IMG/VR virus record: IMGVR_UViG_2802429226_000008
Span: 1-41,124 of that record
DNA: 41,124 nucleotides
Source of the DNA: a virus
Taxonomy: Duplodnaviria > Heunggongvirae > Uroviricota > Caudoviricetes
Strand: one strand, 5' to 3'
How positions within the stretch are numbered: the first letter of the stretch is position 1; each line of letters starts with the position of its first letter. The translations under genes and the position numbers were made by a program. The notes under the pieces were generated by a model that saw nothing but the letters and a program-made list of their open reading frames with translations, searched no databases and was not told the origin of the DNA. Below are positions 4,045 to 7,168 of this stretch, in pieces.

Positions 4045-4171
4045 TTTGTTCTCCACGTATATGCGCTGCACCGCGCTGAATTCTGGTAAAAAGAATCCCT
4101 CACCATCCGGCGATTATTGAGTAAATTACGTTTTCATAAATGCCCCCGCAGGGGCATTTGCAGTAATGAAA

Positions 4172-5061: not shown

Positions 5062-5424
5062 TTAATGACCTGCTGCGCGGAGTTTTCCGTCAGGTTCACC
5101 GGCAAGAGTCAGTAATTGTCCCTGGTCTTCCTGCAGAATAGTCAGGCGACCACCGCGATTGACATACATCGGCGTTTCGGTGGTGTCTTCTTCGGAAATT
5201 TTCCCGCGGTTAGTCGGGCGAACATATGAGAGTTTGTGTTTGATTTTCACACGGTTCTCATCAAATGGTTCGATTTCCAGGTTGAGTGAGACCTTACCTT
5301 TGGTTTTCGTGTTCATCACACCGGAAGCGACTTCACTGAGAACTGCGCCGATTTTGGTTTCAAATACGCCGCCGTCCAGCTCCCCGATAAATGCCTGCAC
5401 ATCAGTACTGCGTTCGCTAGCCAT
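5062..5424 (-). CDS. hypothetical phage protein (120 aa)
   Basis: ATG at 5424 with GAGGAG SD; upstream in-frame extension of track ORF to 5742 has junk-like composition. Confidence 0.6.
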   Translation of the reverse strand: MASERSTDVQAFIGELDGGVFETKIGAVLSEVASGVMNTKTKGKVSLNLEIEPFDENRVKIKHKLSYVRPTNRGKISEEDTTETPMYVNRGGRLTILQEDQGQLLTLAGEPDGKLRAAGH

Positions 5425-5861
5425 TTTGCTGCTCCTCATCATATCGACCCTGCAAGGCCGATTAGTTTCTCCACAAAACAGAGAAGAACACCTGCGGTAG
5501 CAGCCGCCCGGATGGATTGGGTTATGAGCCCGTCGTCCGGTGATGCTCTTCTCTGTTTTGTAAAAAGGACGGTACCAGCCGGAAGCAAGGGTACAAACTG
5601 GTACCGCCAGGACTACACACAGCATAAAGTTGTGGTGCCGGGTGCCTCCCGGTGCCTGGCGAAGGTTGCACACCAGACGGGTGGGTATCCACAGAAGGTC
5701 GACTGTCAGCCTCAACCTTAACCCGCGTGCGCTGAGCCGCATTCACCACAACGCTAAGGATTCTCTTTGGTTGAAAATACTTAGCTGTTATGTGCCTGTC
5801 TTTTCACCACTTCAGGCTCGGTGGTATCCTTTTAAGCCCGTATACATAAAAGGAAAATCAA

Positions 5862-6107
5862 ATGACTTTTGATGAAAAAGAACTTGATAATGCAATTAAT
5901 AAAATCATCGTAACGTCGCTCTTTTCCTGTCTCAGCGACACTCAGCAGAAACAGTTCTACGAATCGGCTTTCAACATGATCGAGCGTTGTTGTTTCTGCG
6001 ATGCCGACGAGTTACCTGAAAAAATCAGGAAACAGTTGGCTGATGCTCTTCGAGTGCGACTTTCTGACCAATTTTCTGAAATGTGCTCTCCGAATTTGGA
6101 CAAATAG
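5862..6107 (+). CDS. hypothetical small protein
   Basis: 81-aa ORF, AAGGA SD 9 nt upstream; convergently overlaps 6025..6300. Confidence 0.45.
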   Translation: MTFDEKELDNAINKIIVTSLFSCLSDTQQKQFYESAFNMIERCCFCDADELPEKIRKQLADALRVRLSDQFSEMCSPNLDK

Positions 6108-6300
6108 AAAAAGGCCATTTCCATTCAGGGTCTGATGGAAATACTTCAGCCTGTTCCAAAGCACGGCGTAAAGAGAACACAACTCCAGCCATAATCTGAT
6201 GTTTCCCATTGGTCCAGCTATCGCCGCTCTGATCTACAGGGGCGGCTATGTCGTATGACCAAACGACTTCACAGTTATTGTTTAAAATCTGGACTTTCAT
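6025..6300 (-). CDS. hypothetical small protein, first gene of leftward early operon
   Basis: ATG at 6300 with AGGTG SD; lies downstream of PL-like promoter. Confidence 0.45.
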   Translation of the reverse strand: MKVQILNNNCEVVWSYDIAAPVDQSGDSWTNGKHQIMAGVVFSLRRALEQAEVFPSDPEWKWPFSICPNSESTFQKIGQKVALEEHQPTVS

Positions 6301-6426
6301 TTCATACACCTGCTTTAACATGAGTGCCTAGTGGCACAACATGACTCAACGAATCATCCTGGACTTCATATGCCCCAGGCGGCTACTTCGTGGGCGTCCT
6401 GCCTGTTCGTTGTTTCGCTTGGGTAC

Positions 6427-6454
6427 ATTATGTATCTCAAAGGTACATTGTCAA
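6427..6454 (-). promoter_or_regulatory. PL-like sigma70 promoter (-35 TTGACA, 16-nt spacer, -10 CATAAT) with overlapping GTACA-type palindromes
   Basis: minus-strand reading of 6427..6454; palindrome TACAT-N-ATGTA at 6424..6434. Confidence 0.5.
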
Positions 6455-6457
6455 GTA

Positions 6458-6480
6458 TAAAAAAACCTGCCGAAGCAGGT
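6458..6480 (-). terminator. rho-independent terminator downstream of cI
   Basis: minus strand ACCTGCTTCGGCAGGT hairpin followed by a 7-T run. Confidence 0.7.
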
Positions 6481-6493
6481 TCATAAACATTGA

Positions 6494-7168
6494 TTAGGCT
6501 TTGATTTTGTATCTTCTTGGTTTTCCTGAGAAAATCACTGTACCAATTATAGAGCAATTACCGTTGATCTTAATGTAAGGCTCAGGCCAGTTTGGGTTTA
6601 ACGCTTTGAGATAACGCTGTGTCCCATCTTCTATCAACCTTTTGAAGGTGGTTTCGCCTGTATCGTGCATCAATGCAATAACGTCGTCACCGTGGCAGGC
6701 AGGTACTTCAGGATCGACAAAAATCATGTCTCCCGGGCGGTACTCATCAATCATTGAATCACCTATCACCCGCAAGATATAAGTCATTTCCCCACAGGGT
6801 ACAGGGCAGGGATACGTTTCTGCTGTGCTCAAATCAACCTCAGAATATCCAACTTCTTTCCATGCTCCGGCCTGTACCCATGATATGACAGGGACTAATG
6901 TGATTTGTTTATTAGTGATTGAAACATCAGGTTTTTTTGTGATGTTCGTTGTCTGGTGTTCTTGATCGAGCCATCCGACAGGCAGGTCGAAACATTTTTC
7001 GATGTGTCGTGCCATGCTGTCACCGATATTTTTAGTAGCACCATCTCCCATAAACCTGCTGGTCTGGGTTGGCTCGCGATCAATCATAGTGGCAAAGGAA
7101 GAATTCCCGCCAACACCATCTCTCAGTTTTCTGGCGTTAGACCGCCGGATGTCATGGATTGTTTTCAT
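6494..7168 (-). CDS. cI: CI-type prophage repressor (HTH-XRE N-domain, S24 LexA-like peptidase C-domain)
   Basis: 224 aa; C-terminal VIGDSM serine motif; no SD before ATG (leaderless-like); divergent from cro. Confidence 0.88.
   Translation of the reverse strand: MKTIHDIRRSNARKLRDGVGGNSSFATMIDREPTQTSRFMGDGATKNIGDSMARHIEKCFDLPVGWLDQEHQTTNITKKPDVSITNKQITLVPVISWVQAGAWKEVGYSEVDLSTAETYPCPVPCGEMTYILRVIGDSMIDEYRPGDMIFVDPEVPACHGDDVIALMHDTGETTFKRLIEDGTQRYLKALNPNWPEPYIKINGNCSIIGTVIFSGKPRRYKIKA

Follow-up and report, generated by a model that had tools for sequence, protein, structure and literature searches.

Modular organisation of the locus

The window analysed here, a 41,124-nucleotide stretch of DNA (IMG/VR record IMGVR_UViG_2802429226_000008), is an SfV-type lambdoid prophage, and the 437 bp at its positions 5425-5861 are 99.8% identical to phage SfV by BLAST. 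On the minus strand these 437 bp carry a pseudoknotted RNA core that is a sub-threshold member of a known RNA family, STnc100, embedded in a modular leader. An earlier note, made from the sequence letters, had described the stretch as a GC-rich, highly structured non-coding part of the leftward early operon, and as either a structured RNA or the decayed remnant of an inserted element. The operon setting was described correctly: the repressor gene, the match to the promoter pL, orf33 and orf32 are all on the minus strand, and beyond orf32 the leftward genes continue with yfdQ and yfdR and on to xis and int. Read outward from pL, the minus-strand order is promoter module, P0, core, linker, terminator, long hairpin and orf32 ribosome-binding site (RBS). 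The features, including open reading frames (ORFs), are as follows.

6494-7168, minus: cI-like repressor gene
6454-6427, minus: predicted pL, an 11/12 sigma-70 match (TTGACA-16-CATAAT) found by consensus scan directly downstream of the repressor gene
6025-6321, minus: orf33, with an end-to-end PHROG family match
5862-6107, plus: rightward ORF, matching phrog_3311 end to end (E 1.2e-55)
5832-5861, plus: predicted 5' untranslated region of the rightward ORF, with RBS AAGGAAAA at 5850-5857
5794-5831, plus: conserved 38-nt module, a predicted rightward promoter with an extended -10 (TG 5822-5823, TATCCT 5825-5830)
5753-5785, minus: P0 hairpin (inverted repeat I2, 13 nt, 85% complementary), abutting the 5' end of P1
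5626-5755, minus: STnc100/PasD-type pseudoknotted core, 130 nt, from Rfam, covariance model R1 and covariation; its closing helix P1 is GUUGUGGUG/CACCACAAC
5611-5625, minus: linker AUGCUGUGUGUAGUC, 15 nt, between core and terminator
5562-5610, minus: predicted intrinsic terminator tL, a 13-bp stem GGCGGUACCAGUU/GGCUGGUACCGUC followed by C and UUUUU (5566-5562)
5468-5566, minus: long hairpin with a three-way junction at its tip (inverted repeat I1, predicted -51 kcal/mol)
5425-5467, minus: orf32 5' untranslated region, with RBS GAGGAG at 5432-5437 and a small hairpin
5062-5424, minus: orf32, yfdP-like, annotated in SfV, with a phrog_204 match

Composition and folding bear out the description of the stretch as GC-rich and highly structured. 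GC content is 0.52-0.58 over 5400-5800, as against 0.375-0.45 in the sampling windows on either side, and none of 100 shuffled sequences was as stable as the predicted minus-strand fold (-176.5 kcal/mol, z = -6.2). The plus-strand fold is weaker (z = -3.6), and the stronger folding of the minus strand is consistent with an RNA read in the pL direction.

All repeats listed in the earlier note are present, at coordinates that were wrong by at most 1 base. The inverted repeat ACAAAACAGAGAAGAACA lies at 5473-5490, with its partner at 5544-5561, and extends to the 25-nt arms of I1 (5473-5497 / 5537-5561; 84% complementary, 39 nt between). The stem GGTACCAG/CTGGTACC lies inside a perfect 9-bp repeat (I4, 5570-5578 / 5598-5606), and the CCGGG/CCCGG stem is at 5638-5642 / 5648-5652. 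A further perfect 9-bp long-range pair, GTTGTGGTG at 5629-5637 with CACCACAAC at 5744-5752, was absent from that list. The idea of a structured RNA stands, that of one single element does not: the stretch holds several modules, and its right-hand ~70 bp most likely belong to a promoter of the opposite direction and not to a leftward RNA.

A pseudoknotted core of the STnc100 family

A permissive Rfam scan gave a full-length match to STnc100 (RF02076) on 5559-5774 of the minus strand (39.5 bits, E 8.6e-7, model positions 1-206 of 206), below the gathering threshold of that family. The STnc100 consensus fold is present, with a closing helix around UGGUGAAU / CACCA, internal hairpins and the hairpin CCGGG-AGGCA-CCCGG. 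In the fold of the 130-nt core, the closing helix P1 is followed by an unpaired AAU, hairpin P2 with a conserved GCG in its loop, helix P2a, a P3-P4 pseudoknot and hairpin P5, which is CCGGG-AGGCA-CCCGG. The pseudoknot is formed by the strand after P2a, AAGGUUG, which pairs with CAACCUU in the P4 loop. The core lies ~670 nt from the pL match and is co-oriented with pL and with the flanking leftward genes.

We collected relatives by BLAST with the core, which gave ST64B, phiES15, P1-like phages and others, and then by the exact 20-mer ACCGGGAGGCACCCGGCACC from P5, which gave more than 120 viral contigs. A covariance model, R1, was built from 47 representatives with less than 90% identity. R1 scores the window copy (5626-5755, minus) at 83.2 bits (E 1.7e-24), with the window's own sequence being among the 47, and finds 136 copies in the loci searched.

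The base pairs of the core are maintained by compensatory change. Across 101 distinct relatives, 97.2% of cells are standard pairs and 17 of the 26 core pairs have changed on both sides; the covariation score is 0.408, as against 0.136 for shuffles (0/500 reach it) and at most 0.106 for slid partners, in an alignment that was fitted to the model, so that these figures lean towards structure, by a large margin nonetheless. P5 itself shows a compensatory change in the copy in Qin (CCUGG/CCAGG). The pseudoknot strands also covary (CCAGUC/GACUGG, CUGGUGU/ACACCGG, AAGGUUG/CAACCUU, AGACUGACAAA/UUUGUCAGUCU and others), and their mean complementary run is 7.1 in matched and 5.1 in mismatched sequence pairs. 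The full-length STnc100 alignment and the compensatory covariation, in the family as in the long inverted repeat described below, uphold the structured-RNA alternative of the earlier note, which had proposed both an Rfam scan and a covariation analysis.

We also considered a tRNA-like gene and rejected it: ARAGORN was negative over 5300-6000, and the permissive Rfam scan of 5200-6500 gave no tRNA match at E ≤10.

P0, linker, terminator and long hairpin

By eye, ST64B, phiES15 and P1 have a hairpin of other sequence at the position of P0. The linker is nearly identical after the core in ST64B, e14 and phiES15 despite their differing terminators, and is a candidate either for a single-stranded seed or for the 3' strand of an outer closing helix. 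No complementary site for it was found elsewhere in the window. The minimum-energy fold pairs the linker with 5784-5800, a pairing to which covariation gives no support.

The module tL is a predicted intrinsic (Rho-independent) terminator. The earlier note was right that GGTACCAG/CTGGTACC forms a stem, and the role of that stem can now be refined to that of the terminator hairpin. A simple terminator scan missed tL since its loop exceeds 8 nt. STnc100 has a 3' terminator, and Rfam aligns tL to the 3' hairpin of the model. Across the family, a hairpin and T-run follow the core in 91 of 123 distinct contexts (74%), at a median of 42 nt downstream.

The long hairpin has a basal duplex of ~25 bp that takes in the U-tract of tL. 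Its top consists of two small hairpins; one arm ends in GGGCUCAUAACCC and the other is short and variable. Among 19 variants, 96% of cells are paired and 4 pairs are compensatory, as against 47-55% of cells in slid controls. By BLAST, 2811 of 5426 complete E. coli genomes have a match to a 196-nt query that spans the hairpin together with the terminator (5425-5620). The genes that follow the hairpin differ, being yfdP-like here and in ST64B and xisE in e14. As a duplex of such length is what RNase III cuts, the long hairpin may be a processing site of the RNase III type in read-through transcripts.

One arm tip of the long hairpin contains CGGGCUCAUAACCC (5519-5532, minus), a 14-nt string shared exactly with the anticodon stem-loop of E. 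coli initiator tRNA-fMet. The identity takes in the G-C pair run and the loop CUCAUAA, and there is 1 exact match in the window where 0.01 are expected. Few parts of the module are better conserved than this string, but ST64B (CUCAUUA) and e14 (UUAAUAA) have other loops.

Absence of a conserved coding frame

As the earlier note had stated, the gap contains no convincing coding frame. Its ORFs are short and overlapping, and none has a Pfam family match. Taken modulo 3, the spacing of two conserved anchors in 92 relatives falls evenly into the three classes (34/30/28), which indicates that no frame is preserved, and no reading frame is open in more than half of these relatives. The Pfam and frame evidence likewise speaks against a frameshifted fragment of a protein gene. 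Some ORFs in the gap do match PHROG families (phrog_3651, E 2e-46; phrog_33599, E 1e-15), many phages have a 'hypothetical protein' annotated here, and RefSeq places ymfH over the e14 copy. PHROG families are built from annotated phage ORFs, and these matches most likely reflect ORFs called over the same RNA in other phages. Against a protein, the annotated ORFs are on differing strands and in differing frames between genomes, ST64B has no annotation here, and the conservation is accounted for by base-pair covariation.

Core copies in other phages and prophages

The layout of repressor gene, leader, core, linker, terminator and next gene recurs in the leftward early operons of ST64B, e14 and phiES15. 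In ST64B, a full core follows the repressor gene with no annotated ORF between (STnc100 35.1 bits); in phiES15, a full core precedes a terminator and kil (STnc100 40.6 bits). Phage P1 has a full core in the leader of the ban operon (L002 2499-2628, plus; R1 75 bits, STnc100 33.4 bits), which ends 29 nt before tciA without an intervening terminator. This leader is controlled by C1 and also carries a 'dicF-like region' and three tRNA genes. Like the window copy, those of ST64B, phiES15 and P1 all score below the STnc100 gathering threshold.

Two copies are in E. coli K-12. The Qin prophage of strain BW25113 has a full core (L234 7709-7842, plus; 69.6 bits, E 2e-21) that begins 12 nt beyond the dicF terminator and leaves 24 nt to the dicB ATG. 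The paper on the dicBF operon makes no mention of a structured element in this interval. The other copy, in e14, scores 68 bits and lies under the annotated coding sequence (CDS) ymfH (L127 2867-3185, plus), which spans the core copy, the terminator and the long hairpin. ymfH is thus probably not a protein gene and its CDS annotation an artefact. A screen reported ymfH as one of several prophage genes able to trigger a retron toxin-antitoxin system (bioRxiv 10.1101/2020.06.22.160242); should ymfH be this RNA, the triggering may be an effect of RNA. We found nothing in the literature on ymfH as an RNA.

The family appears to be wider than either the STnc100 or the R1 model captures, given the low R1 scores (21.9 and 13.4 bits) of a divergent core that occupies the corresponding position, upstream of the same terminator module, in mEp460 (L126 2694-2834, minus) and Stx2a_1447 (L128 2694-2834, minus). 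This variant has the same P1 (GUUGUGGUG/CACCACAAC) and another P5 (CCGG-AGAUCAGCA-CCGG).

Most copies in viral contigs lie downstream of a Q, DNA methyltransferase or TerB gene and upstream of a holin or phrog_143 gene. No conserved protein partner was found beside the core, the neighbours being Q, DNA methyltransferase, TerB, three holin families and phrog_143. In several contigs 3 to 5 core units stand in tandem, repeating every ~250 nt (L071 4376-5463 and 8376-8519; L033 1722-2345; L024 369-992; L014 2322-3354). Most units have their own terminator and come after an AT-rich promoter-like stretch, and the first units have no ORF between them. A second search pattern, taken from P2, identified 95 stretches in species-representative genomes, nearly all of Enterobacterales (Enterobacteriaceae, Erwiniaceae, Rahnella).

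No core copy was found in HK022, DLP12 or phi80. IpeX/DLP12 and phi80 had been considered as carriers and were rejected for want of a copy; the M3 RNA of phi80 is annotated as an oop homologue. R1 found no copy in the late region of the window's own phage. A possible second core in the yfdQ-yfdR spacer (4059-4170, minus) was rejected, with an R1 score of 15 bits and half of the helices misfitting. This weak match, which contains a GC-rich hairpin (GCCCCUGCGGGGGC), is also present at the equivalent position of mEp460 and of one viral contig, and it is probably an ordinary intercistronic hairpin.

Comparison with known RNAs

With STnc100 the window copy shares the same helices, the strings UGGUGAAU ... 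CACCGGGAGGCACCCGGCACCA, a full-length alignment, a prophage location and a terminator that follows. It differs in P2, which is GCGGC...GCG here and CCCCC...GGGG in STnc100, and in the P3 pseudoknot, which the Rfam model lacks. Its location in the pL operon also differs from that of most of the relatives collected, which are between a Q or methylase gene and the lysis genes. In Salmonella LT2, STnc100 is present in several copies, and it has been detected in vesicles of Shiga-toxin-producing E. coli. STnc100 and PasD are described as prophage-encoded, Hfq-associated small RNAs (sRNAs) whose function is reported as not worked out, and PasD1 and PasD2 of enteropathogenic E. coli are reported to be structural relatives of STnc100 from lambdoid prophages (bioRxiv 10.64898/2026.05.13.724894). 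The tie between PasD and the window runs through STnc100 alone, and the PasD genes are near Q and lpxR and not in a leftward operon.

DicF offers a partial likeness: the 5' arm of the window terminator, GGCGGUACCAGUUUGUAC, resembles DicF GGCGGUAUCAGUUUUAC, and Qin carries the same core beside dicF. However, the pairing of the DicF hairpin is unlike that in the window, and the order here is core then terminator, whereas in Qin the dicF terminator precedes the core. Membership of the DicF family (RF00039) was rejected, with 15.7 bits and E 2.5 at 5567-5621 (minus) and a gathering score of 48. P1 and Qin each combine a core with DicF-like sequence, and this window does so weakly.

The put RNAs of HK022 are, like the core, cis-encoded structured RNAs that lie upstream of terminators in the early operon of a lambdoid phage without N. 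They have two stems and ~70 nt, putL just downstream of PL and putR ~270 nt past the PR start site (PMC9378689), whereas the window core has 130 nt, is pseudoknotted and is ~670 nt from pL. Homology to put was rejected, since BLAST at word size 7 (the pL and pR regions of the window against the HK022 early region) and R1 were both negative.

Terminated pR' leader transcripts such as lambda 6S RNA and StxS arise in the interval from Q to the holin gene. Most core relatives are likewise between Q and a holin gene with a terminator following, but the window copy differs from such late-leader RNAs in lying in the early left operon.

The probable right-hand promoter module and neighbouring genes

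The 38-nt module at 5794-5831 is probably a portable promoter for rightward 'moron' genes and not part of the leftward RNA. This reading follows from its extended -10, its -35-like hexamer (TTTCAC/TTTTCA at 5801-5807, 17-18 bp upstream of the -10) and its constant place before unrelated opposite-strand ORFs. In relatives the -10 position reads TATACT (phiES15) or TATGCT (e14). In 12 of 12 distinct contexts an opposite-strand ORF start (RBS and ATG) lies 20-40 nt past the module, and the ORFs are mutually unrelated. Between E. coli/Shigella phages and Arsenophonus phage-plasmids (e.g. Arsenophonus nasoniae, L235 2001-2038) the module is 95-97% identical. The consensus promoter scan did not call it. 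Here the module would drive the ORF at 5862-6107. It can also be folded as two overlapping hairpins.

The rightward ORF and orf33 are convergent, and their 3' ends overlap by 83 bp, so that leftward transcription from pL would pass antisense through the rightward gene. A similar convergent overlapping pair, ymfI/ymfJ, is found in e14, with proteins unrelated to those here; the absence of similarity led us to reject orf33 and the rightward ORF as homologues of YmfJ and YmfI.

The predicted first ~70 nt of the pL transcript (AACGAACAGGCAGGACGCCCACGAAGUAGCCGCC...GAUGAUUCG; 6330-6420, minus) are conserved with ST64B (L003 ~2660-2740) and could fold as a stem-loop. As neither this phage nor ST64B has an N gene, a put-like antiterminator would be better sought in this promoter-proximal leader than in the core. 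No similarity between the leader and HK022 was found by BLAST.

Near the left end of the window is a tRNA gene (1370-1442, plus; 71.8 bits, anticodon loop UUCGUAA, CGU), the only hit when the whole window was scanned at the Rfam gathering thresholds. It is presumably the host tRNA at the prophage attachment site.

Possible functions

We favour, as somewhat more probable than improbable, an account in which the stretch supplies the immediate-early pL transcript of an SfV-type prophage with its downstream part, which is structured and untranslated; an sRNA derived from the leader or the 3' end is released at tL, and read-through RNA is processed at the long hairpin. RNA polymerase reading leftward from pL would make P0, the pseudoknotted core and the linker and would then meet a strong intrinsic terminator. 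Termination at tL would release a stable sRNA comprising P0, core, linker and terminator, once the upstream orf33 part had been trimmed, and would limit transcription into orf32, yfdQ and yfdR and on to xis and int. Directly behind the terminator, read-through RNA would carry the 25-bp duplex, where RNase III would be expected to cut, separating the sRNA part from the downstream mRNA. By analogy with its Hfq-bound relatives, the sRNA might act in trans by pairing through the linker, and the conserved fold might give stability or bind some partner. Within this account the lack of coding, the family assignment by sequence and structure, the conserved structures and an anatomy like that of a terminator are shown, and the origin at pL, termination as such, cutting by RNase III, Hfq binding and trans action are inferred. 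An sRNA-like architecture is supported by the terminators found in 74% of the 123 contexts, by the tandem arrays, most of whose units have their own terminators, and by the reported Hfq association of relatives.

Several points weigh against this account. The window copy does not reach the 47-bit gathering threshold of STnc100. The covariation figures lean towards structure for the reason given above, and the invariance of P5 stems in part from the collection of relatives by its exact 20-mer. The loop of tL, at ~15-19 nt, is unusually large. No leftward promoter was found directly upstream of the core by scan or by eye, so the primary transcript would be ~855 nt long and would need processing. 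As pL is repressed in the lysogen, the RNA may be made only on induction. A constrained pseudoknot of 4-5 helices exceeds what a base-pairing sRNA needs, such that the real function may lie elsewhere. Finally, the cores of Qin and P1 have no terminator behind them; instead a gene start (dicB and tciA, respectively) comes 24-29 nt on, which fits a cis role better than an sRNA gene.

That cis role is unlikely on present evidence, yet far from negligible. The core would act within the operon as a processing or 'punctuation' signal, as a 5' stabiliser or as a translational control for the next gene, recognised by a host enzyme or factor, much as tRNA-like structures serve in the cutting of polycistronic RNAs. 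The core in Qin fills the gap between the dicF terminator and dicB, that of P1 stands shortly before tciA in a leader that also has tRNA genes, and kil is the next gene in phiES15. The fold is better conserved than the downstream linker, and its topology loosely recalls that of a tRNA, with a multi-helix junction closed by P1 and the 3' strand of the 5-bp P5 continuing directly into that of P1. However, neither ARAGORN nor the Rfam tRNA model sees any tRNA likeness, P1 varies in length (7-9 bp) and the loop of P5 holds 5 nt rather than 7. Moreover, in most copies a terminator precedes any gene, and some array copies have no ORF between units.

It is improbable that the core controls the following terminator, whether as a ligand-sensing riboswitch or as a put-like antitermination RNA, the latter of which would account for leftward gene expression in a phage without N. 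Structured domain, short linker and intrinsic terminator are in the classic order in 74% of contexts, and the interval from pL to the terminator has no gene for an N-like arginine-rich protein, and in ST64B no annotated ORF at all. The places of the family, after pL and between Q and the lysis genes, are also those of antitermination-controlled terminators in lambdoid phages. Nevertheless, the Qin core comes after a terminator and the P1 core has none, and inspection, the only means used here, revealed no conserved alternative pairing between core and terminator. Carriers of late-leader copies also encode Q, which would make an RNA antiterminator redundant. The HK022 early region has neither sequence similarity nor an R1 match, and the put RNAs are two-stem, ~70-nt structures of which putL is promoter-proximal (PMC9378689).

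Two further readings can essentially be excluded. That the stretch codes for at least one small protein, or is what frameshifts have left of one, is highly improbable in view of the evidence on frames and covariation given above. We give equally little credence to the remnant of a mobile element with the inverted repeats as its ends: although GC content exceeds that of the flanks and BLAST alignments break at ~5609 and ~5825, the repeats are covarying stems, transposase and target-site duplication are absent, the breakpoints coincide with module borders (terminator/core and the -10 of the rightward promoter) as in ordinary lambdoid mosaicism, and BLAST searches did not show the same 437 bp with direct repeats at unrelated non-prophage sites.

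As a tentative possibility, held with less assurance than the sRNA account, the core might be more than the body of a base-pairing sRNA, namely an autonomous structured domain with a specific partner, such as a host processing enzyme, RNA polymerase, a defence system or a small ligand, that phages put at the regulatory joints of their operons and that has gone unrecognised in the dicF-dicB spacer of K-12 and in 'YmfH'. Retron triggering by ymfH might then be caused by the RNA, or by the adjoining initiator-tRNA-like hairpin, and not by a protein.

The present analysis resolves 437 bp of SfV-type prophages, previously unannotated or wrongly annotated, into named parts, and indicates that the STnc100 family is wider than its Rfam threshold admits. 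The annotation of CDSs such as ymfH is probably an artefact, as are several PHROG families in this region. The feature is ordinary in kind and of moderate interest, which lies in a constrained pseudoknot fold that sits in well-studied K-12 loci, and these K-12 copies open the function of the core to direct testing by standard genetics. A fold so strongly conserved across Enterobacterales prophages, and found beside terminators and genes for toxic products (dicB, kil), probably has a specific role.

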